A DNA stretch of 13,223 nucleotides from an uncultured archaeon (GCA_964508365.1 CAZDTP010000083.1:1-13223), one strand, 5' to 3'. Shown: positions 2,816 to 13,223, numbered from the stretch's first letter. Translations and numbers: made by a program. Notes: generated by a model from the letters alone, not told the origin.

Positions 2816-3706
2816 TTAAAAAACGGTTTTTAGCCTTTCCAATATTCTTTTGCGAAAAAGATGATTATCTGTGAGCCGTTCAGAAAAAAAATCTTTTAAA
2901 CAAGAGTAAAAACTTTCCCTATTGTTGGAAAGAAGCTTGGAATCTAGGTTGCTTATTATTAAATATACAAAAAGTTTAACGAACGCCTTGTGAGCCAGCT
3001 CAAGGTTGGACGGAGATATGTCGACCATGCTGTGGTTGAAATTATTGCGAAAAGAGATGTATTTTATCACATCCGTCTCAATATCATTTGGAAATCCGAG
3101 CCTTACCATTTTGTTAGCCATAATTTTTTTTCCGTCTCTGGTGTCATTGCTGCTTTTTTCGCTCTCGCCAAATCGTTCTTGATAGAGTGCTTCTAACTTA
3201 GGATATAACTTAACGAAAAACCTGTAGTCGTCATAATCGCACATCTCAATCCATTCGCTCGCGCCAATTTGGCTTAAACATCTTTCTATTTCTTCTTTAG
3301 CCTCGTCAATCGAGATTGGCTTTTGTTCTTCGCTCGAATCTTCGTTGTTAAACTTAAATACTAATCTATTTACTCGATTTGCCACAATCTCCAAAAGATC
3401 GTTCTTTTCTTTTATCTCTTCCCTTAGTTGAGATTCTACTTTGGTTGGTGAAGGAAGTTGATCTTTATTTATTACGGTTTTTAACAAGTCTTGAGTCTTT
3501 TGTTCCACAAAGAGAGAAGTAAAATACGTTATATCTTCCGTCATGCGACCTCGACATTGAAGTAGCAAATGTTTTAACTCCTTAGCGCTGGTTTTACCGT
3601 CGATAAAGTTTTTTATCGCAATTTTGAGCTCCTCTAACTCGTTTTCCTCAAAGATAATTTTTTCTATTATCTGTCCAAAATCCTCTAAATCTTGACTCTT
3701 TGCCAT
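2816..3706 (-). CDS. Soluble helical protein with a C-terminal HEPN-like domain (intact RxxxxH)
   Basis: N-terminal helical/coiled-coil region. Then YRFFVKLYPKLEALYQERF, resembling the first HEPN helix, and YISFRNNFNHS (R220-H225, nt 3032-3049). Start overlaps the upstream stop (TAATG at 3704-3708). Confidence 0.6.
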   Translation of the reverse strand: MAKSQDLEDFGQIIEKIIFEENELEELKIAIKNFIDGKTSAKELKHLLLQCRGRMTEDITYFTSLFVEQKTQDLLKTVINKDQLPSPTKVESQLREEIKEKNDLLEIVANRVNRLVFKFNNEDSSEEQKPISIDEAKEEIERCLSQIGASEWIEMCDYDDYRFFVKLYPKLEALYQERFGESEKSSNDTRDGKKIMANKMVRLGFPNDIETDVIKYISFRNNFNHSMVDISPSNLELAHKAFVKLFVYLIISNLDSKLLSNNRESFYSCLKDFFSERLTDNHLFRKRILERLKTVF

Positions 3707-6700
3707 TATAACGCCCCCAGCCTGCCTTCAACGTATTGTCTAAAACTATCAAATATCTTGGAATACGCATCAAAAGTATTTGTGCAAACTTCGGCTACTA
3801 TAGTTTCATCGGTTACCTCTATGTTTTCGATTAGTAATAAAAATTGTCGTAAATCGTCTCCTGTAAGCGGAAACTCCTCAATATTCCCGAATTTACCAAT
3901 GAATGTGTCTATATCTTCTGAAGTTATTGCGTAGTTCACGCTGTAATATTCTCGGTAAACGCTGTGAAGAAATTTTGGGAATAATTCTCGAGCTGTTTTA
4001 AGCACCTTCTCGTATTTTTTGTAGTTCATGTTTTTATGCATAGTAAAGTATTCGTAATATAAAATAGGAGCAAAATGTTTTGTCAAGGCGCTTCTTATCT
4101 TCATCGGATCTAAAACCTCTTCATCTGGCGTTTCTTCAGAAGTATAAGCCTGTCTTAAATCAGACGTATGCTCGGATTCCAACTCCACAGGTTCGTAAGT
4201 AATGTTCGAACTATCACGGGAATCGTAATAATCCTTCAAAACTCTTTGGTAGTGAGGTCCGACTGCAAAAGAAGTTTGCATTGACTCTGAACCACTTGCT
4301 CTTCGGGGGTGATTTTCTACTAAATATTGTTTGCTCACTAAAATACCAAAAACATTATCAATAATTTCTTTTTCTCTCTGCTTATCTTTAGTAATTCTCG
4401 CAATGTAAGGTCGCAAGATGTTTCGGAGTTCTTCTCTTACTTTGTTTTTGTAGAGATTTCCGACCTTATCAACCGCTTGGATATTGTTTAAAAATTTTAC
4501 AATACCCTCAATTAAGTCGCTATAACCGGAAAAATCGCTTTCGAATAGAGTGGTTTGAGCTCTTTTCATAATTTTTTTCTCTGTTTTTTCTAAGTCGAAA
4601 CCTTGCTCTCCCATATAACTCACGATTTCTTGCCACGATAGAGGTTTAGCTTCTTGTAATTCCTTAAAATCCAATTTTACGGGGAAGGATTGGTAGATAT
4701 CCTCTCGCTTAACCACCGCTTCGTCTTGTTTCATCGCTGCGATATACCTCATCTGATATCCTTCGTTCCTCCGATTGCTGTAGTAACCAACCCCGTGCAA
4801 GTTCTCTAAGTTCATCTGTCCGTTGAGAACTGCTAAATCCCGTTTATCGGATGCTCGAAAAGTTACGATGTTGTCGAAGTAATTAAACACATTAGGGTGT
4901 AAATATCTTATTTGGGAGGCAGAAAACACGGTGCCGAAGCCGTTATCTACGAAGGGAACAAAAAATTTGTCTATTTTACCGTACTGGATTTTCTTATCCA
5001 GGAAAAACCCATCAAAAATTACGTCTATGTGAGGCAGGACAATAAATTTAGGGATATACGGTTCTCCAGTTTTTAAATAATGAATAAACTTTGATAAAAT
5101 CACAAAAGCAAAATAGCATTGTTTGTCGTAATCTCTTACGTCTGAAAGATCTATGATTATGGTTTTATCGTTAGTTATGAATTCGTGTTCTCGGGGAGTG
5201 TCTTGCGTTTGAGGCTGCTGATGTTGGATAAAGGAAGACTCTTGGGGAGTAAATTCCTTAAAAAAGGAAAGCAAAGTTTCCGTAACTGAAGACTTCTCCC
5301 AGTCGCGTTGCGTGGTTAAGTCTAACACTAATGTAGATACATCAATATCAGGATTTCTAAGTATAGTGTTCTTAAAAGTCTCAATAGTCCGTTCGTCTTT
5401 TTTAAAGCACATTGCGTAAGCGTCAAACATGTAATCCAAGTAATCGGGGTTTTTTTTGTCGTAGGGAATCCCTGAGCGAAGAGGGTTGATCACAATAGTT
5501 TTCCCTAGTTTGTGGTAGATAAATTGATTCTCGTAAATAGTGCCTTGGAAAATTCGTACGATCTTAGACCAATTACCCGTAAAATCGAACACCACCGAAG
5601 GATAGCCCGCTTTAACCAATTCTAGAACTATTTTTTGAGTAAGGAGTTCTCGGCTAGAGTTCGTACCGTTGGTGACGAATAGGTTACGCACTTGCTCGAT
5701 CAAAAACCCAGCGGGCACTTCGTTTTCCAAATATTCCGTGTTAATGGTGGAGCCAATCATAATAGCGTTGATAAGCTGTAAAGGAGTGTTAAACTCTGCA
5801 GCTAACCGCGTTTCTACTCCTTTCTTAAATTGATTGGAAATAATGGTCAGAAAAGCTAAAATTTTACCTTGAAACAGCAAATAGTTAAGATGAGTACCGT
5901 TCCTTCTGAAAAACTTGTTTTTAAGCGCTTCGAACACAAAAGCTGATTGCAACAAATTGTGCCTTAACGGTTTAATCTTGAAATTCATGAAATGGCTCCC
6001 AAAAGCAGTTTTTAAGACATTGAACTGATGTATTAACCGCGTTTCAATCTCATCCATAGCCTCATAAGTAAGCGACGGTGAATTAGAAACGACTGAAGTG
6101 GAATAGGTAGCAATTACGCTCCAGATACCCGCCCTATCTCTAAGCCATTTGTCTCTTAGTTCTTTATTGTTTCGATAATTGAACAAGTAATACTTTTCTT
6201 TTTCGTTTAAGTATTTAAACCCTTCCGCATCGAATTTTTTAAAGTTTAATGGTCCAAGCTGAAAAGAAACGGTGAAAGGCATCCCTTCTTTGTTTAACGC
6301 TTCGTAAAATTTAGAGGCGTTGCTATAAGGCGGCGGGCTACAGAAATAAAGGTTTGCCATCTTAATCCCTCCAGTTGTTTTTCCTTCGATCTGATAAAAA
6401 ATTGTCTCAGAAGTTCTTCTCGATTTGTAAAAATCTATTTTGGCAAAGGGATCGATCACTTTTATCTCTTTAGACTTAAATAGCTTACCTTTTGACAACT
6501 GAAAAAACAATTCTTGCCACCACACGAGTAAGAGCGACGCTACGATACCAATGTCAAGCAAAAATCGGTATAACAAAGGTAGATCAAAAATTAATAGAGA
6601 CACGTCAAGTAATACTATTAACGCAACGACATATCCCGCTTTTACGATAGAAGCTCCTAAATTGGGGCGTATGGTTTCGCAAGTAATTCTCTTCGAATCG

Positions 6701-7518
6701 GGTTCTAACGGAACGTCTCGTTTTAAAACGGTGCTCCTAAACACTTCAATTAACTCTTGTCCGATCAACAGCGATATTTTAAAGTGGTGAAAGTTAGACG
6801 GAATACCCGTTTCTAACGCAGTAACGCTTAATCGGAGCTCCTTTACTAACTTAGCTAGCTTTGACTTTGTAATGTTCCCGCTCACTTTATAATATGTAGA
6901 AAACAAAATCATCGTCTCAAAAGTCGAACTTTTATCGTACGCTATAGCGTCGGTTATCTGGAGCGGTTTGTGAACAACTTGGTAAGTATAAGGAGTTCGA
7001 TTTTTGTACAACCCTTTAATATAGGTAAGAAGAGAAGGTCCCACATTCTCGGCCATAACTCTAATTTTCAGAGTACTAACGCCCGTAGTTATTAAATCTA
7101 CATTATTGGTATAATAGAGCACCGATTTATCGTAGTCCGTTTGCCAGAAAATTAGATTTTGGAAAGGGTCAAACGCTCCATACTCTAGTAAGTGATGCAA
7201 ACTAAAGAAACTTTTGCGGAACACCAGCACGAAACTTATTCCGATTATAATAGTTGCGCTAATTGAGAACACAATATCTACCGTTGAAAGCAATAAAGAA
7301 GCAAAAAACGCAAATTCGATAGCCACTAATGAGATCGCTTTTTTTAGAGTGTCGGTATTATCTATATCTTTGTAAGAGGGAAAGAAATCCCAAATACTAT
7401 AATAAGGGTCTTCGCCACTTTCCATATCGCCTCCTTTCCCACTTTTTTTATTTTCTTTTAATTTCCTATTCTGAATATTATTATCTTCGTTTAGAAATTC
7501 TCCATACGATTTTACCAT
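3706..7518 (-). CDS. Membrane-anchored VirB4/HerA/FtsK-fold protein with degenerate Walker motifs (probable pseudo-ATPase)
   Basis: Two TM hairpins (aa about 61-100 and 290-335). Family-ordered elements follow: NLFVTNGTNSSRELLTQKI at the Walker A position, SVVFDFTGNW (hhDxxGEY-like), INPL, TIIIDLSDV, KFIVLPHID at the Walker B position, and GFGTVFSASQ...LHPNVFNYFDNIVTFR. The CDS is secure; the family call is from motif order. Confidence 0.7.
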   Translation of the reverse strand: MVKSYGEFLNEDNNIQNRKLKENKKSGKGGDMESGEDPYYSIWDFFPSYKDIDNTDTLKKAISLVAIEFAFFASLLLSTVDIVFSISATIIIGISFVLVFRKSFFSLHHLLEYGAFDPFQNLIFWQTDYDKSVLYYTNNVDLITTGVSTLKIRVMAENVGPSLLTYIKGLYKNRTPYTYQVVHKPLQITDAIAYDKSSTFETMILFSTYYKVSGNITKSKLAKLVKELRLSVTALETGIPSNFHHFKISLLIGQELIEVFRSTVLKRDVPLEPDSKRITCETIRPNLGASIVKAGYVVALIVLLDVSLLIFDLPLLYRFLLDIGIVASLLLVWWQELFFQLSKGKLFKSKEIKVIDPFAKIDFYKSRRTSETIFYQIEGKTTGGIKMANLYFCSPPPYSNASKFYEALNKEGMPFTVSFQLGPLNFKKFDAEGFKYLNEKEKYYLFNYRNNKELRDKWLRDRAGIWSVIATYSTSVVSNSPSLTYEAMDEIETRLIHQFNVLKTAFGSHFMNFKIKPLRHNLLQSAFVFEALKNKFFRRNGTHLNYLLFQGKILAFLTIISNQFKKGVETRLAAEFNTPLQLINAIMIGSTINTEYLENEVPAGFLIEQVRNLFVTNGTNSSRELLTQKIVLELVKAGYPSVVFDFTGNWSKIVRIFQGTIYENQFIYHKLGKTIVINPLRSGIPYDKKNPDYLDYMFDAYAMCFKKDERTIETFKNTILRNPDIDVSTLVLDLTTQRDWEKSSVTETLLSFFKEFTPQESSFIQHQQPQTQDTPREHEFITNDKTIIIDLSDVRDYDKQCYFAFVILSKFIHYLKTGEPYIPKFIVLPHIDVIFDGFFLDKKIQYGKIDKFFVPFVDNGFGTVFSASQIRYLHPNVFNYFDNIVTFRASDKRDLAVLNGQMNLENLHGVGYYSNRRNEGYQMRYIAAMKQDEAVVKREDIYQSFPVKLDFKELQEAKPLSWQEIVSYMGEQGFDLEKTEKKIMKRAQTTLFESDFSGYSDLIEGIVKFLNNIQAVDKVGNLYKNKVREELRNILRPYIARITKDKQREKEIIDNVFGILVSKQYLVENHPRRASGSESMQTSFAVGPHYQRVLKDYYDSRDSSNITYEPVELESEHTSDLRQAYTSEETPDEEVLDPMKIRSALTKHFAPILYYEYFTMHKNMNYKKYEKVLKTARELFPKFLHSVYREYYSVNYAITSEDIDTFIGKFGNIEEFPLTGDDLRQFLLLIENIEVTDETIVAEVCTNTFDAYSKIFDSFRQYVEGRLGAL

Positions 7519-7526
7519 TCTTTATT

Positions 7527-7532
7527 TCACCT
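7527..7532 (-). promoter_or_regulatory. AGGTGA ribosome site built into the upstream stop codon
   Basis: The minus strand reads AAAAGG-TGA(stop)-AATAAAGA-ATG(7518). GGTGA is the usual archaeal SD core. Confidence 0.6.
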
Positions 7533-8381
7533 TTTTCCATAATAGAATTTATTAATAAAAATTAAAACTACTACTACTCCAACACAAATGAGGGTTATAT
7601 TGCTAATTGACACCGATAAAACACCATACGTGAAAGATTCTACTAGAACTATAACACCAATCATACCGAATAAAGCGATTAGCCCGACTATCATGAACTG
7701 ACCGATGGTCTCTTTTGATTGACGATAGGATATATTGTCTTTTAAAGGACCCGAAATCACGATCTTTTTTCTCGACTTTTGCTCTAAATTCTTCCTTACG
7801 GTCTTTAAGTGCAAAATCTTTTCGAACGCGTCTTTATCAAATTGGTTTTCGATTTTTAATTGAAGGGCTTTTTCCTCGTCTTTAAACCTTTGCATCAATA
7901 TTGGGTTAAACACACTTTCGTTTTTTCGTCTTCTGGATTGGCCACCGGAAAGAAAAGAAAACATAGATACTGTACGGTTATTGTTCAAAAATTCAGAATT
8001 AATATTCTCGTGTAAATTGGGGACTTCTAATTTACGAAGCTCGTAATACGCTTCAATTACGCCTTTCACATTCTCAAGATTAATATCCCCTTGTCGTTTC
8101 TGAAACAAAAGCTCTCTCTCAGACAAATATTCTATCAATTCAGGCTTGAAGACGGAAATGTTGAAATTAAGAGAGAATATTTTATTTACAAGTTTCATGT
8201 ACTCAAAAATTTTTTCGCCCGAATCTTTCTCTCTCGATCGAAAGCCTAATCTGATTCCAATCTCGTCTACTGCGTTGCTTACGAGCAAAAAGCTCACAAC
8301 TGCTAGCTTTTTATAGTTGCCTGTTTCCTTACAGAGTTGTATTAACCGCTTTAACTTTAAATCTAATACTTGTTCGCTCAT
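7527..8381 (-). CDS. Membrane protein: helical (degenerate HEPN-like) N-terminal domain, coiled coil, two C-terminal TM helices
   Basis: Hydrophobic stretches at aa about 229-250 and 259-277. ATGA overlap with the upstream gene at 8378-8381. The N-terminal pattern YKKLAVVSFLLVSNAVDEIGIRLG...IFEYMKLVNKIF resembles HEPN helices but has no RxxxxH. Confidence 0.75.
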   Translation of the reverse strand: MSEQVLDLKLKRLIQLCKETGNYKKLAVVSFLLVSNAVDEIGIRLGFRSREKDSGEKIFEYMKLVNKIFSLNFNISVFKPELIEYLSERELLFQKRQGDINLENVKGVIEAYYELRKLEVPNLHENINSEFLNNNRTVSMFSFLSGGQSRRRKNESVFNPILMQRFKDEEKALQLKIENQFDKDAFEKILHLKTVRKNLEQKSRKKIVISGPLKDNISYRQSKETIGQFMIVGLIALFGMIGVIVLVESFTYGVLSVSISNITLICVGVVVVLIFINKFYYGKR

Positions 8382-9127
8382 TTTCTACCCCTCGTAGCTA
8401 AAAAATCTTCGTAAACTTGCTCTACTTCGTTTTTAGGCTCTTTTTTCAGCTTTAATTGAGAGGTTTCAATTGCTAGTTCTTCTTGAGCGATTAACTTGTC
8501 TAGATCGAAAATTTCTTTCGCGCTTGTAATGTACGCGTTTACAACTTTTTCAGGAGTAGATTGTTCCTTCTCGAAAGTGCTAACTACAGACTGATTGAAC
8601 AACGCATAAGGAAATGTGCATCCGAAGGAGATAACCTGAAACCAATATCCAGGACCAATCGAATAATAAAGCGTGAGACCTAATTCGCTATCGTAATAGA
8701 CCATAAAAGGATAATATAGATCGTTTGGTAATAAAAAAAACAATGGGAATATCAACACAAAAAATCCGATTAAGACAATTAACGAAAGGGTTATAAAACT
8801 AAACCTTTTTACTTTCAATATGTTATCGCCTTGTTCCACATCATGAAAAAGTGCTGAATACGATGATAAAAAAACCGCCACGATAAAAAACAGAACAATA
8901 ATAATAGGCATTGTAGCGTTTTGTGGTCTGTAAGATTCGTTAAACAAATTCCCTTCTCCAAATGGAGTGCTCCAACCGAATAAAGCATTGTAAACCCAGG
9001 ACATAATAGGTGTTCCACTATCAAGCACTCCCTCGAGGTAATACCAATCTAAAAACACTGACGCAAAGCATAAGACAAGACCTATCACAAAAATAACTTT
9101 ATATCCTGATTTAAAATTTATCGACAT
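8378..9127 (-). CDS. Four-TM membrane protein with a charged C-terminal tail
   Basis: TM segments at aa about 11-27, 74-94, 109-133 and 158-178. LDWYY and LFGW after TM1, YSIGPGYW before TM4, and an acidic/basic helical tail at aa 180-249. Confidence 0.8.
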   Translation of the reverse strand: MSINFKSGYKVIFVIGLVLCFASVFLDWYYLEGVLDSGTPIMSWVYNALFGWSTPFGEGNLFNESYRPQNATMPIIIVLFFIVAVFLSSYSALFHDVEQGDNILKVKRFSFITLSLIVLIGFFVLIFPLFFLLPNDLYYPFMVYYDSELGLTLYYSIGPGYWFQVISFGCTFPYALFNQSVVSTFEKEQSTPEKVVNAYITSAKEIFDLDKLIAQEELAIETSQLKLKKEPKNEVEQVYEDFLATRGRK

Positions 9128-9169
9128 GTCACTTTAAACTCTCTTTATTTCCTTAAAACCCAAACTCGA

Positions 9170-9192
9170 CGAGAATTTATAAAGAAAAAAAT
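9170..9192 (-). promoter_or_regulatory. Shared upstream motif, copy 1 (ATTTTTTTCTTTATAAAnnCTCG)
   Basis: 21 of 23 nt identical to 11152-11174. The TATA lies 48 nt before ATG 9127. Its T7 could also terminate the gene ending at 9225. Confidence 0.5.
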
Positions 9193-9224
9193 TACATACA
9201 GATAGAATAATAACGATTTTTAAA

Positions 9225-11129
9225 TTATGGATCCTCTAAAAATGAGATGTATTTATTACCGTAATTATTAGGAGTAATTCTCTTCGTGTTTTCTTTGGAA
9301 TCCTCAGATTCGTACATAGTAGGGAAGTGTGACTCCTTCTTTTTCATGTCCAAGCTATTTTTTAAAGTGTTTGCTTCACTTTGCTCAATAACTCCGAACT
9401 TAGCGTGTTTTCCTAAACATTCGTACCCAAACTGAGTCAATAACTCGTCTGTGAACTCATATTTAAAATCGAGAAGATCTATCTCGCTAAATTCCAAATT
9501 TTGCATATAGTAAGGGGTTTCGAACTTATCTAAGAAGTTCTTTTTAGTTTTATGAGCTCTAAAATATAAAATTATTAATAAAAAAGCGTAAATCCCCATA
9601 ACGGCATACCCGATGGTATTAAATAGCCGTAATAAGTAATACAACTCTGTGAAGTAAATAACTGCGAGCGTAACCGCGTACCCGAAGACAAGAAAGGACG
9701 CCACCCTCACTTTGGAGCAAAATTTTTCGTTTACACTTTGATATTCTTTAATCGGATTTGATCTTTTCGTCCGACTCTCAATTATTTGATATTTCTTCTC
9801 TAAGAACCTAATCAAAGAGGATAAGTTTGGATAATCGATTGCGTGGAGATTTGTGCTTCTTTGATACGGAAAAGCGATGGATTTTTCCATACTTCTGGGA
9901 GGGTTGTTGCAAAGTAGAATAGGTTCGATAACGACTTTGTATTGAGTAGCTCCGGAAGGAAAAACCCCTTTTTTGCTTCCTACGCCTTTTTCTGAATATA
10001 ATTCTACGTGTAAGTATTTTTGAAAGAATTCGCTAATATTTTGGTGATGTACTAAATCTTCGTCCACCGAATCCCTAACTTGTAATAAGTTTTGGATGGC
10101 TTGCTCTAGGTTGTTGTAAGCTCTAAGATCATTTGTATTTGCGTGCGATTTTAATTCTAATTTGGTCTCCTCAACTAACACCGTTCCTTCTTGGTCAAAC
10201 ATTTTTACAGGAAATAGTAGCAGAATCCTAAGGTCGTCCGAAACTTTCACTAACTTATACCCCAGAAAATCAAGACCAGTAGTAAATTGTTTTAATGTTT
10301 TTAATGAGCAGGGGATTTCATAGCACCCTACTGCTTTGAAAGTCTTGCTAATTTGATGGTGAATATTACGCTCAGAAAAACCTTCTTTGGAATTTTCGAA
10401 ATCGATACTTTTTGGTTCTTGGTTAGTGTAATCGACCTCCTCTCCTTGCACAGCCTCTTCTATCTCCGGTTGAGCCTCTTTTACTAGAATTTCAGGAACA
10501 ATTTCTTGCGTGGATTCTTCTTCGTATTCGATTACTTGCTCCATTTCTGGTTTCGTATCGAACTCATTATCGCCAGTAAATTGTGCTTTTTCCGACTCAA
10601 GCGCAATTTCTTCTTCTTCTTTTTCGGTTATATCGTCATAATTTTTAACTCGTTCTGATATCGGAGGATAAGACGCTGTTAATCTCGAATAATTGTACTT
10701 ATCGGAAAACCATTTTTGCTCGGTTTGCGACGGTTCAAAATCTTCCTCAACTTCCTTTTGGGATTCCTCGCTAATTTCTTCGGTTTCGTCTACGATTACT
10801 TCTGCAACTTCGTAGTTTTCAATAGAATATGGTTTGGATTCTACTTTTGTCGAATCTTGAATCCGACCATTCTCGCCTACATTGTCTTCTTTTTGAGAAG
10901 CTTCTAAACGATTTTTGGCTGCGGCAATAAATTTCGTTGCAGAAACCAACCCAATTCCGGGAGTCTCAGACAACCTTTCGGGCGTCATCTCGGCAATTTG
11001 TTGTATCGTTTCGATTTTAGCGTTGTATAATTTTTCGGCAGTGGTCGCGCCAATACCTTTGATTTTGGTTAGATCGTCTCTGGAAGGTTCACTAACCATA
11101 TTTTCATGGGTTCCGTATACATCTGTCAT
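9225..11129 (-). CDS. Tandem helix-hairpin-helix protein with acidic linker, restriction-endonuclease-like domain and two TM helices
   Basis: DLTKIKGIGATTAEKL...LSETPGIGLVSATKFIAAAK (two HhH GIG motifs, aa 18-75). Glu-rich low-complexity region at aa 76-250. Alpha/beta domain with GLDFLGYK...ILLLFPVK. TM segments at aa about 476-498 and 503-524. Confidence 0.8.
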   Translation of the reverse strand: MTDVYGTHENMVSEPSRDDLTKIKGIGATTAEKLYNAKIETIQQIAEMTPERLSETPGIGLVSATKFIAAAKNRLEASQKEDNVGENGRIQDSTKVESKPYSIENYEVAEVIVDETEEISEESQKEVEEDFEPSQTEQKWFSDKYNYSRLTASYPPISERVKNYDDITEKEEEEIALESEKAQFTGDNEFDTKPEMEQVIEYEEESTQEIVPEILVKEAQPEIEEAVQGEEVDYTNQEPKSIDFENSKEGFSERNIHHQISKTFKAVGCYEIPCSLKTLKQFTTGLDFLGYKLVKVSDDLRILLLFPVKMFDQEGTVLVEETKLELKSHANTNDLRAYNNLEQAIQNLLQVRDSVDEDLVHHQNISEFFQKYLHVELYSEKGVGSKKGVFPSGATQYKVVIEPILLCNNPPRSMEKSIAFPYQRSTNLHAIDYPNLSSLIRFLEKKYQIIESRTKRSNPIKEYQSVNEKFCSKVRVASFLVFGYAVTLAVIYFTELYYLLRLFNTIGYAVMGIYAFLLIILYFRAHKTKKNFLDKFETPYYMQNLEFSEIDLLDFKYEFTDELLTQFGYECLGKHAKFGVIEQSEANTLKNSLDMKKKESHFPTMYESEDSKENTKRITPNNYGNKYISFLEDP

Positions 11130-11151: not shown

Positions 11152-11174
11152 CGAGCGTTTATAAAGAAAAAAAT
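11152..11174 (-). promoter_or_regulatory. Shared upstream motif, copy 2; probable TATA promoter of the HhH gene
   Basis: TTTATAAA lies 28 nt before ATG 11129, a distance that fits a nearly leaderless archaeal transcript. Same flanks as the copy at 9170-9192. Confidence 0.55.
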
Positions 11175-11280: not shown

Positions 11281-11901
11281 TTGGTGATTATAACAATAAT
11301 AGAAAATAAACAACTTTCAGAAAAGGAACTTACGCAAATCTTTAACTTGTTAAAACATCCTTTACGGAGAGCAATTCTAAAACAATTATCTAAAAGTCCA
11401 CGAGCTTACTCACAAATTTTGAAGAATCTTAACATTCAAGAAAGTAGTATTTTAAATTATCATTTAAGAGAAATGGACGATTTAATGATTAAAAAAGATG
11501 TTAATGGAAAATATGAGTTAAATGAAGTTGGTGAAATTTGTTTGCAGCTTGTACTTAAAGTCAAGGAAAAGGATGATATTAATAGGTTCAATAAACTTCA
11601 ATTAGTGGTAGCCCAATTAAAAAGAGCAATAAATTTTATTCAAATAACATTCTCGGTACTTGTAATTATTCTAGTATTAGAGCTTTACTTGTTAAATATT
11701 ATTGATTTTTCTTCTTTTCTTTTTATGTTTGCTTTAGGGGCGGTTTTTAGTATCGTACTTTCAAACGGTGTTTTCAAGGTCATTGAAAAATCTGAGAGCA
11801 ATGAGATCAATAAGTTAGAAAAGAAGGAGAAATTAGGAATGTATTTTAGAAGTTTTACCATTAATATACTTGTTTTTACAATAGTCACACTATTATGGTA
11901 G
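11281..11901 (+). CDS. ArsR-like winged-helix regulator with C-terminal TM helices
   Basis: IFNLLKHPLRRAILKQL...YSQILKNLNIQESSILNYHLREM...KYELNEVG is a typical archaeal wHTH. Hydrophobic segments at aa about 117-138, 143-165 and 189-206. The exact start (TTG or GTG) is uncertain. Confidence 0.8.
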   Translation: MVIITIIENKQLSEKELTQIFNLLKHPLRRAILKQLSKSPRAYSQILKNLNIQESSILNYHLREMDDLMIKKDVNGKYELNEVGEICLQLVLKVKEKDDINRFNKLQLVVAQLKRAINFIQITFSVLVIILVLELYLLNIIDFSSFLFMFALGAVFSIVLSNGVFKVIEKSESNEINKLEKKEKLGMYFRSFTINILVFTIVTLLW

Positions 11902-11925: not shown

Positions 11926-12335
11926 GGGGACATAGACATGTTATTATACTTGAGTAGTAAATTTAAAACTTAATCTAAATAATAATGAATTTTGGAACCA
12001 CCCAAAAATGTTTGTTGTTAGTTTCGAATAACCTATACACTAATCTCGAATAGAAAAAGAAAAATTTTCGACTTAGCCATCGGTTTTTGTTTATATAGAT
12101 TCCTACTCTATCGGTACTATGGTTCTTACCAACATACTGCCAAGACATCTCTAGATTTACATTTTCCTCTGGATTTTAATATGGTCATATTCCTCTTTTT
12201 ACTTTTTAAGGTAGTTAAGCCGGTAGGAACTTTCTTTTTTTGGATTTATAATTTCCTAAGGTTTTTCCTTTATATTTGATCGAGTGTATAAGCTATTAAT
12301 CAATAACACGGCTATTTATAGAAATACCACGAGAT

Positions 12336-13223
12336 ATGTCTCTTACTAATTACACCCACTCTAAAAATACGCAAGAAGAAGAAGGAATGAAGGAAGAAAT
12401 ATTTCAATACATCCATGACGAGCGTGTCCTTCGAGTATTGTTCGAGCAAAAAATATTTAAGCTCCGGCAAATTCAGAAAGAAGCTATTCAAAATGGTTTA
12501 TTCTTTCGAAAGTCGTTCCTCGTATGTGCGCCGTCTGGGAGTGGTAAAACATTGATAGGAGAAATCAGCGCTGTAAACAATGTATTCCAGAAGTTTGGCA
12601 AGTCTATTTATTTAGTTCCCTATAAGGCTCTCGCAACCGAAAAATATGTCCACTTCAAAAAAAGCTACGAGCGGTTTGGAATTACGACCGAGTTGTCTAT
12701 AGGAGACTATGATGTGGACGATTCCCGTTTAGCAAAAGCAGATATAATTGTTACAACATACGAGAAAATTGACTCAATCCTGCGGAATTTTAGCGATAAA
12801 GAATGGATCTTCGATATTTCGACGATCATCATAGACGAGATACACATCATCGGCGAGTCAAGTCGCGGACCGAGGTTGGAATCGCTTATCGTGAGGTTAA
12901 ATGAGTTTTTACAGCAACCGCAGATAATAGGGCTTTCAGCTACCATAAAAAATCCTGAATTTTTTAACTCTTGGCTTTCTTCTCTTGGAAACGATACTAA
13001 GCTAATAATATCCAATGCACGACCGGTTCCTTTACACTATAGAATAGAAGTTACCCAGAACAAAGACTCTACTATCAAAAAACTTGTAAAGGCTACTATA
13101 GAAAACAACGGACAAATATTAGTATTCCTCAACAAAAGAAAATCGACCCAGCAGGTTGCCCAAAACCTAAAAAATCTGGTTAAAGCACAAATTTCTGAGG
13201 CTGAGTTGAAGTCGTGCAAGAAA
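12336..13223 (+). CDS. hel308: Hel308/Ski2-like SF2 helicase, N-terminal 296 aa, truncated by the window edge
   Basis: Open frame from ATG 12336 (alternative ATG 12387 with GAAGGA upstream) to the window end. Q motif LRQIQKEAI, Walker A APSGSGKT (from 12528), YLVPYKALATEKY, IGDYD, IIVTTYEKIDS, DEIH (from 12834), RGPRLE, GLSAT, RPVPL, GQILVF. Could be a paralogue rather than the orthologue. Confidence 0.9.
   Translation, partial: MSLTNYTHSKNTQEEEGMKEEIFQYIHDERVLRVLFEQKIFKLRQIQKEAIQNGLFFRKSFLVCAPSGSGKTLIGEISAVNNVFQKFGKSIYLVPYKALATEKYVHFKKSYERFGITTELSIGDYDVDDSRLAKADIIVTTYEKIDSILRNFSDKEWIFDISTIIIDEIHIIGESSRGPRLESLIVRLNEFLQQPQIIGLSATIKNPEFFNSWLSSLGNDTKLIISNARPVPLHYRIEVTQNKDSTIKKLVKATIENNGQILVFLNKRKSTQQVAQNLKNLVKAQISEAELKSCKK

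Follow-up and report, generated by a model that had tools for sequence, protein, structure and literature searches.

Proteins of the FtsK/HerA/VirB4 superfamily are ring-forming DNA-translocating ATPases, and both the fold itself and degenerate domains within the superfamily are known. In Crenarchaeota, the Ced system consists of the membrane proteins CedA, CedA1 and CedA2 and the VirB4/HerA-like protein CedB, and it imports DNA. CedB is an active ATPase, and Ced has a pilus-forming subunit. Here we describe five genes, numbered 1 to 5, of an uncultured archaeon, which fill positions 2816-11129 of the minus strand of a complete 13.2-kb contig (C83). The whole contig is called the window below, and its source genome has 4.07 Mb in 149 contigs. 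Gene 4 encodes a protein with the predicted fold of this superfamily and with degenerate ATPase motifs. We propose, with a probability of about 0.5, that the five products form a non-catalytic scaffold at the membrane, which faces the cytoplasm and handles DNA in connection with recombination and repair.

The locus resembles Ced as an archaeal chromosomal cluster in which small transmembrane (TM) proteins accompany a VirB4/HerA-fold protein, with a link to recombination and repair; unlike CedB, gene 4 lacks the ATPase motifs. With VirB4/TrwK (4ag5, 7o42, 8rtd), the inner-membrane ATPase of type IV secretion, gene 4 shares the fold of the C-terminal domain, and two-helix hairpins would anchor it much as VirB3 does for VirB4. 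The order of hairpin, alpha/beta module and P-loop domain in gene 4 recalls the VirB3-VirB4 fusions, although the hairpins of gene 4 are VirB3-like in architecture only. Gene 4 differs from VirB4 in that the Walker A GK[ST] and the Walker B DE are absent, the unit of hairpin and module is duplicated, and a helical extension of 270 residues is present at the C-terminus. Moreover, it is a chromosomal core gene with no other part of a type IV secretion system, relaxase or coupling protein nearby, and it is not matched by the Pfam and NCBIfam models of VirB4 (CagE_TrbE_VirB and related models). HerA (4d2i, 9x1l, 8j4u, 9c1m), known from the archaeal resection helicase HerA-NurA and from the bacterial defence complexes HerA-SIR2 and HerA-DUF4297, shares the fold and the context of recombination and repair genes, whereas gene 4 is not detected by PF01935, is membrane-anchored, has lost the catalytic motifs, has no NurA, Mre11 or Rad50 adjoining, and has an alpha/beta module ahead of the P-loop domain. 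FtsK, a membrane-anchored DNA translocase, is organised in a similar way, with TM helices at the N-terminus, then a long linker and a RecA-like domain, and its C-terminal winged helix (gamma domain) is paralleled in short Asgard relatives of gene 4. The fold match to FtsK is, however, much weaker than that to VirB4 or HerA, the catalytic motifs are absent from gene 4, and no sequence kinship is detectable. The C-terminal domain of DndH (7es4), a protein of restriction that depends on DNA phosphorothioation, is also similar in fold, but no Dnd genes are found nearby.

No described system was found that combines a dead membrane-bound VirB4/HerA relative with duplicated modules, a membrane protein with a helix-hairpin-helix (HhH) domain, two further TM partners, an adaptor that exchanges ribonuclease (RNase) domains, and a fixed Hel308 neighbour. 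No family of PADLOC-DB 2.0 was matched by any of the five proteins at an expectation value (E) of 1 or below, and no description of the operon or of the gene 4 family was found in full-text literature. These results agree with an earlier note on this DNA, which had proposed the set as undescribed.

Fold and motifs of gene 4

The product of gene 4 shows no match beyond noise in Pfam, NCBIfam (E<=1), PADLOC and PHROGs. Searches of PDB sequences with phmmer and with a profile gave only a weak match, to the defence HerA 8j4u (E 0.29). The AlphaFold2 (AF2) model m42f38accf9e7 spans residues 345-1000 with a pLDDT (predicted local distance difference test) of 83. In a Foldseek search with this model, TrwK/VirB4 is located at the top (E 3e-14), followed by HerA (E 5e-14), and 152 matches were obtained at E<=0.001. 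According to VIA, the closest structures are the C-terminal domain of DndH (Z 24.3, 326 residues, root-mean-square deviation (rmsd) 4.0), VirB4 4ag5 (Z 24.0, 332 residues, rmsd 4.1), HerA 4d2i (Z 23.5) and TrwB (Z 20.0), and the alignments to these four cover 314-347 residues. FtsK follows at Z 14.0, and the RecA/Rad51 rows reach only Z 10-12. On the basis of the model, residues 575-960 can be firmly assigned to the FtsK/HerA/VirB4 superfamily fold. The fold alone cannot choose VirB4 over HerA, because the best three Z-scores tie; for the same reason the DndH domain, although it is the top single match, shows no specific relationship.

The sequence NGTNSSRE is located between the strand 612-616 and the helix 620-636 of the model, which is the expected P-loop site. 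Arg occupies the position of the Walker Lys, and Glu occupies that of Ser/Thr. GK[ST] is missing in all 29 aligned members of the family, including paralogues and distant short forms, and the pattern (N/G)G(T)xxxR(E/D), with near-invariant N, G and R, is found instead of GxxGxGK[ST]. The Walker B strand reads hhhP(H/N)hD in the Loki-type forms, and hhhDD or hhhDG is kept in distant forms. Neither the Walker A GxxxxGK[ST] nor the Walker B hhhhD[DE] of active ATPases is present in gene 4. Judged by this motif loss, the assignment of gene 4 as a pseudo-ATPase is supported, and the earlier description of a VirB4/HerA pseudo-ATPase is borne out by the fold (Z of about 24) as well as by the degenerate Walker motifs.

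The N-terminal part of gene 4 is a duplication. Residues 55-290 and 286-565 are homologous according to hhalign (probability 99%, E 2.7e-18, 219 columns). The whole-chain alignment to TrwK/VirB4 begins in the second module and covers the model residues 1-628 with Z 15.7, but it is loose (rmsd 14.4). The module ahead of the P-loop domain in the model is mixed alpha/beta, and a HAS barrel is not evident.

The fold match to VirB4/TrwK and the VirB3-like arrangement of hairpin, module and C-terminal domain would be expected of a conduit like Ced or type IV secretion, which imports or exports DNA across the membrane. The VirB4-like hub would then be gene 4, with genes 1-3 as parts of the channel and of the receptor. 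Since GK[ST] occurs in no member of the gene 4 family, such a conduit would have no motor of its own.

The gene 4 family and its distant relatives

Gene 4 has 137 close-to-moderate homologues of equal length. All are from Asgard archaea (metagenome-assembled genomes (MAGs) labelled Loki/Promethearchaeota, Hermod, Thor and Hod), and all are annotated as hypothetical. A profile of the central domain, for which no Pfam model exists, detected 554 clusters at 50% identity among 1.8 billion proteins, and these fall into three size classes of about 1250-1330, 770-850 and 510-550 residues. The domain is present in 52 of the 68 genomes of the same family, part of which are incomplete MAGs. In three other Asgard families, short or split relatives were found by weak but significant matches; they have the same dead P-loop, and some of the short ones have a C-terminal winged helix. 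With the two halves of split genes written as 4N and 4C, the gene orders at these relatives are Hel308-x-x-4N-4C, RadA-peptidase-x-4N-4C and RadA-x-x-XPD-x-x-4-like-Hel308. The recurrence of recombination and repair genes in varied orders is the main argument that the gene 4 family acts on DNA.

The same recurrence bears on the reading that the products form a membrane complex unrelated to nucleic acids, for example in protein export of the type of the FtsK-like EssC/EccC with degenerate domains or in membrane organisation, with the helicase neighbourhood as inherited order only. EssC and EccC are among the fold matches of gene 4, the products of genes 2 and 3 and the core domain of gene 1 carry no nucleic-acid signature, and the strong synteny was in every case observed within a single family of related genomes. 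The association with Hel308, RadA and XPD, however, recurs in differing orders in the three other Asgard families, the short relatives have a winged helix, gene 1 has a RadA-type HhH domain, and the closest folds are DNA-acting (DndH, VirB4 and HerA at Z 24, as against 13-15 for EssC/EccC). A role apart from nucleic acids appears improbable.

A search of the own genome with PF01935 gave seven other loci, gene 4 not being among them, and the genome has at least six canonical DUF87/HerA-like ATPases. Gene 4 is therefore no replacement of HerA. The nearest sequence relatives of gene 4 within the genome include DUF87/HerA-like proteins (E 0.008-0.02).

Several loci of the wider family were observed in addition. 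The short or split relatives at L022 and L023 (another Asgard family), and also at L020 and L021, are clustered with RadA, XPD and Hel308, with small TM proteins upstream and a 3-TM protein of 550 residues downstream of Hel308. Some genomes (G008, G144 and G168; loci L032, L033, L037 and L044) have two or three full-length gene 4 paralogues with a dead P-loop. The paralogue loci have other neighbours (e.g. a 5-TM protein of 231 residues), and genes 1-3 and 5 are absent there. On contig C87 (10035-10556, L024), a separate open reading frame of 173 residues is 86% identical to residues 1035-1200 of gene 4. It has no Pfam match and adjoins the gene for a beta-propeller/FG-GAP protein of 1572 residues.

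The operon and its chromosomal neighbourhood

The five co-oriented open reading frames encode 634, 249, 284, 1270 and 296 residues from gene 1 to gene 5. Genes 2 and 3 share ATGA at 8378-8381, the stop codon of gene 3 and the ATG of gene 4 are separated by an 8-nt gap with GGTGA straddling the stop codon, and genes 4 and 5 share TAATG at 3704-3708, all of which read as the earlier note had claimed. The synteny was analysed in 24 Loki-type loci from metagenomes and species-representative genomes. The order of genes 1-2-3-4-5 is kept in about 20 of the 24 loci, with the genes overlapping or nearly so, and gene 2 is syntenic in 21. According to this conservation, the proposal that the five genes form one set is upheld, and their action as one unit is supported at the level of sequence.

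The operon lies in a fixed block, Hel308 - operon - ThiF - 411-residue gene. The contig end cuts the Hel308-type superfamily 2 (SF2) helicase gene, and the part in the window matches PRK02362 (E 2e-61) and helicase_Hel308 (E 3.5e-55) of NCBIfam. A full-length orthologue of about 840 residues matches the same models at E 5e-118 and 4e-97, both below the equivalog cut-offs. The Hel308-type SF2 motifs are intact. In 13 other loci the helicase orthologue is divergent to the operon and located 35-1436 bp from gene 1, and in relatives a Hef-like helicase is found a few genes beyond the Hel308-type gene. As a side observation, the orthologue at L006 (3238-5757) exceeds the usual Hel308 length by about 120 residues, and a CxC...CxH stretch after its helicase core resembles an inserted SWIM-type zinc finger.

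In Pfam-level scans of the window and the syntenic loci, no VirB3/6/8-like protein, pilin, coupling protein, relaxase or integrase was detected, and no NurA, SIR2 or DUF4297. The GC content ranges from 0.28 to 0.38, and no shift in composition occurs across the operon region. A mobile element and a typical defence island are both made less likely by the stable position, the even composition and the absence of integrase and relaxase; a mobile element was rejected also in view of the conserved flanks (ThiF and the 411-residue gene). The claim that relaxase, integrase and an active motor are all missing thus holds for the relaxase and the integrase. As regards the motor it was incomplete, since a Hel308-type helicase with intact motifs adjoins the operon.

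For a conduit across the membrane, these results point in both directions. Recombination genes close by fit the logic of DNA import for repair. On the other side, a pilin, VirB6/VirB8-like proteins, a coupling protein, a relaxase and an integrase are undetected in the window and the syntenic loci, and the locus is a fixed chromosomal block and no element.

Genes 1 to 3 and membrane topology

Gene 1 has 119 homologues, all from Asgard archaea. Its N-terminal HhH domain, noticed already in the earlier note, scores 47.4 bits against a Pfam cut-off of 27 (E in Table 1). Among the NCBIfam models, RadA (TIGR02236) is matched best, at its N-terminal positions 1-60, and a clean hidden Markov model of gene 1 matches Asgard RadA at residues 2-68 only (E 1.5e-12). 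A core match to the RadA ATPase domain was an artefact of RadA sequences inside the profile, and gene 1 was rejected as a degenerate RadA, as the clean profile matches the HhH domain only. The best Foldseek match of the conserved alpha/beta domain has E 0.12, with weak rows of PD-(D/E)xK nucleases (Shedu and MspJI). In VIA, Upx 9wuf was obtained at Z 8.1, and the match lists are filled by the TM hairpin. The Shedu, MspJI and Upx rows are too weak to assign the domain as a nuclease. The sequence KYxSFLED at the extreme C-terminus (9225-9260) is conserved in nearly all orthologues and looks like a short docking motif.

Gene 3 had been described as HEPN-like, and this label was rejected as unsupported. 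A conserved Rx4-6H or R..H pair is missing in the orthologue alignment, hhalign against the HEPN profile of gene 5 gave a probability of 0.3%, and the profile of gene 3 shows no match in the PDB.

According to a Kyte-Doolittle scan, the numbers of TM helices are two in gene 1, three or four in gene 2, two in gene 3, four (two hairpins) in gene 4 and none in gene 5. The total of 11-12 in four products is in line with the roughly 12 counted before. The membrane proteins (genes 1-4) have no signal peptides, and the Lys/Arg-rich flanks of the hairpins are located on the same side as the large domains. Because of the missing signal peptides and the positive-inside flanks, all large soluble domains are predicted to face the cytoplasm, and the outer loops of gene 2 are the only sizeable extracytoplasmic parts in all five products. 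The predicted topology argues against a cell-contact structure, one of the possibilities raised originally, and against an external DNA receptor. For the conduit, the polytopic partner gene 2 with its two outer loops is a favourable point, whereas the HhH head, like every large domain, is predicted to lie in the cytoplasm. Taking this together with the missing motor and the missing secretion components, we consider a conduit improbable.

Gene 5 and its optional RNase domains

Gene 5 follows gene 4 everywhere. In most genomes it encodes only 112-133 residues and the nuclease domain is absent; the C-terminal part of about 170 residues is present in this lineage and a few others. Gene 5 has no match beyond noise in Pfam, NCBIfam, PADLOC and PHROGs. 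In the motif RNxxxH of the C-terminal part, R220 is the same in all aligned sequences, and N221 and H225 are kept in at least 90% of them. A profile of gene 5 weakly matches the antiphage HEPN protein HepS (9oij, E 0.019), with the motif aligned to IRNkyaH. An orthologue gives weak matches to HEPN_Swt1 and DUF4145 (E 0.1-0.2), and in the ESM search, which serves as a lead only, every named match belongs to the HEPN clan (score 0.86). Thus, the C-terminal part is very probably a HEPN domain. The motif R-N-x3-H is shared with the described HEPN RNases (HepS 9oij, RnlA/LsoA, Csm6 and Swt1-type proteins), from which gene 5 differs in that the domain is fused to the small helical protein of the operon, and in some lineages only. 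At L031:12065-12937 and L034:7376-8302, which belong to a different genus within the family, gene 5 has an NYN RNase domain of the Zc3h12a type instead of the HEPN domain (PF11977, above the Pfam cut-off with E 2e-10 and 2e-13). Judging from the orthologues, the RNase domain on gene 5 is real but optional, and it is not core. The HEPN assignment of gene 5 in the earlier note was therefore very probably right for the C-terminal domain of this lineage, but not for the operon as a whole, as most orthologues have no such domain and one genus has NYN instead.

These features of gene 5 bear on a conflict or antiphage system, in which a HerA-like scaffold would sense an invader and activate the RNase of gene 5 (HEPN or NYN), as in HerA-SIR2 and HerA-DUF4297. 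The intact RNxxxH and its alignment to HepS fit this proposal, swaps such as that of HEPN for NYN are common in conflict systems, and the defence HerA complexes 8j4u, 8wod and 9c1m are among the fold matches of gene 4. However, gene 5 has no nuclease domain in most orthologous operons, no PADLOC model is matched by the five proteins, and the known defence partners with HerA require an active ATPase. Defence systems are usually patchy and island-borne, whereas the operon is kept at the same chromosomal site in 52 of the 68 genomes of the family. The original suggestion that DNA sensing activates a HEPN RNase is weakened by this fixed block, and an antiphage role seems rather improbable.

Proposed role

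The reading preferred here is a DNA-handling scaffold at the membrane. The five products would form one membrane-anchored, cytoplasm-facing, Asgard-specific complex. The core would be gene 4, which descends from the FtsK/HerA/VirB4 family and most likely serves now as a non-hydrolysing ring or scaffold and not as a motor, and which would be held at the inner membrane face by its two VirB3-like TM hairpins. Should gene 4 form hexamers, as VirB4, HerA and FtsK do, 24 TM helices would be brought together. Genes 2 and 3 would be integral membrane partners, and the DNA-binding HhH head of gene 1 would be presented close to the inner face, carried by the long and flexible acidic linker. Gene 5 would be a small soluble adaptor, able to bring an RNase domain (HEPN here and NYN elsewhere). 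The complex would hold DNA at the membrane or hand it over, and motor and enzymatic activity would come from the Hel308-type helicase and from further enzymes of recombination and repair; since the complex would itself have no ATPase, its work on DNA would rely on such enzymes. Gene structure, operon conservation, folds, motif loss and neighbourhood are observed in this scheme, whereas the formation of a complex, its assembly as a ring, its action on DNA and the cooperation with Hel308 are what we infer.

A more specific version is possible and is regarded as tentative, being unlikely in its full form. The ring at the inner face and the RadA-type HhH tether, with Hel308, Hef and RadA, may link the membrane to the chromosome or to incoming DNA, for recombination or exchange. 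This would be a previously unknown membrane-coupled recombination machine, and the complex may possibly act as a tether between chromatin and membrane.

Several points weigh against the scaffold. The link to DNA consists of the gene neighbourhood and one HhH domain, and the HhH domain is absent from at least one orthologue of gene 1 (L003). The synteny counts come from related genomes, which are not independent, and kinship inflates them. The alpha/beta domain of gene 1 has no confident structural match (Foldseek with PDB and viral structures, VIA and ESM Atlas). Genes 2 and 3 show no family match beyond noise in Pfam, NCBIfam, PADLOC and PHROGs, and the profile of gene 3 draws a blank in the PDB, as described above. 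A conflict role, or one directed at RNA, would explain the RNase domains of gene 5 equally well. Finally, the invariant Arg of gene 4 and the Walker B acids of the distant forms may leave room for nucleotide binding or unusual catalysis.

If the scaffold is correct, the operon encodes an Asgard-specific, vertically inherited housekeeping membrane machine whose core is a dead protein of the VirB4/HerA superfamily of DNA translocases and whose gene neighbourhood ties it to Hel308, Hef, RadA and XPD, and gene 4 would be a clear case of the conversion of an ATPase to a scaffold in the FtsK/HerA/VirB4 superfamily. The domain of gene 4 adds a large unannotated protein family. The operon would further give a concrete and testable entry to DNA handling at the membrane (repair, exchange and tethering) in Asgard archaea, a subject that matters for models of eukaryogenesis and can now be addressed with cultured strains of the Loki type.

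Table 1. Positions of the genes, domains, motifs and promoter boxes in the window
Feature	Position	Strand	Basis or sequence
Gene 1, 634 residues: RadA-type HhH, long acidic linker, alpha/beta domain, TM hairpin, conserved cytoplasmic tail ending KYxSFLED	9225..11129	-	
Gene 1, HhH domain (residues 18-72)	10914..11078	-	PF14520 HHH_5, E 2.7e-12
Gene 1, conserved alpha/beta domain (residues 250-455)	9765..10382	-	AF2 model m3f8a733b2bbc, pLDDT 80
Gene 1, TM hairpin (residues 476-523)	9561..9704	-	Hydropathy; two long helices in model
Gene 2, 249 residues: four predicted TM helices, two aromatic-rich outer loops, cytoplasmic tail with conserved DLDKLIA	8378..9127	-	
Gene 3, 284 residues: cytoplasmic helical domain, then C-terminal TM hairpin	7527..8381	-	
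Gene 4, 1270 residues: twice (TM hairpin + alpha/beta module), degenerate FtsK/HerA/VirB4-type P-loop domain, C-terminal helical region	3706..7518	-	
Gene 4, module 1 (residues 57-285), TM hairpin and soluble domain	6664..7350	-	hhalign against module 2
Gene 4, module 2 (residues 286-565), duplicate of module 1	5824..6663	-	hhalign; high pLDDT in model
Gene 4, P-loop-like domain (residues 575-960)	4639..5796	-	VIA and Foldseek
Gene 4, degenerate Walker A position NGTNSSRE (residues 617-624)	5647..5670	-	Model and alignment
Gene 4, Walker B position FIVLPHID (residues 825-832), without hhhhDE	5023..5046	-	Strand 481-484 of model
Gene 4, C-terminal helical region (residues 1000-1270), conserved in orthologue alignment	3709..4518	-	
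Gene 5, conserved N-terminal part (residues 1-125), ancestral small helical protein of the operon	3332..3706	-	Alignment with orthologues of 119-130 residues
Gene 5, C-terminal probable HEPN-type domain (residues 130-296), lineage-specific addition	2819..3319	-	
Gene 5, motif R220-N221-x3-H225	3032..3049	-	HEPN catalytic-type motif
Hel308-type SF2 helicase, 5' part (contig end cuts gene)	12336..13223	+	PF00270, E 1.5e-31
Promoter box upstream of gene 1, BRE/TATA-like	11158..11172	-	TTTTTTCTTTATAAA
Promoter box upstream of gene 2, identical	9176..9190	-	TTTTTTCTTTATAAA
Related promoter box upstream of helicase gene	12264..12282	+	TTTCCTTTATATTTGATCG

Promoter boxes and minor observations

The near-identical promoter motif reported for genes 1 and 2 is an identical 15-mer, TTTTTTCTTTATAAA. 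The window has exactly two copies, each located 20-50 nt upstream of its gene, against a chance expectation of 0.09, and this number was reached in 1 of 200 shuffles. The strict motif has four matches in the own genome, namely gene 1, gene 2, the helicase gene (where the related box is TTTCCTTTATATTTGATCG) and the syntenic 411-residue gene. Relatives have a generic element of TFB recognition element (BRE)/TATA type, tttttt(c)tttaaata, in which the TCG portion is not conserved, and gene 2 follows gene 1 directly without a separate promoter in about half of the Loki-type loci. The box is probably a strong generic BRE/TATA element and not the mark of a regulon. A dedicated regulon was considered and kept as a weak lead only, because the box is generic in relatives, its TCG portion is not conserved and other carriers are present.

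Further carriers in the genome are an RPA-like gene with oligonucleotide/oligosaccharide-binding (OB) folds and a prenyltransferase gene. The RPA-like protein has several OB folds (matches to CDC24_OB3, MEIOB, SHLD2 and POT1), and its gene on contig C51 (23546-24472, L047) has the same extended T-rich box. On contig C12 (843-2124 and 2870-4042, L045), the strict motif is located upstream of the 411-residue gene, whose product has a weak GNAT match, and the following gene of 390 residues carries the related box TTTTTTCTTTAAATA. In relatives, the 411-residue gene adjoins ThiF beside the operon. Contig C12 is probably the continuation of the chromosomal block of the operon.

Other genes of the plus strand are located on both sides of the operon. 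Between gene 1 and the helicase gene, 11281-11901 encodes a winged-helix protein of 206 residues (DUF7347/ArsR-like, E 2e-10), and in other genomes unrelated small genes or nothing are found at this position. On the other side, the ThiF-family E1-like gene (1845-2711), which is kept beside the operon, adjoins an open reading frame of 148 residues (1175-1621) with a weak longin match (Fuz_longin_1, E 0.012). In a distant Loki-type genome, a protein of 143 residues encoded after the operon (L003:15040-15471) shows a weak match to Snf7 (ESCRT-III).

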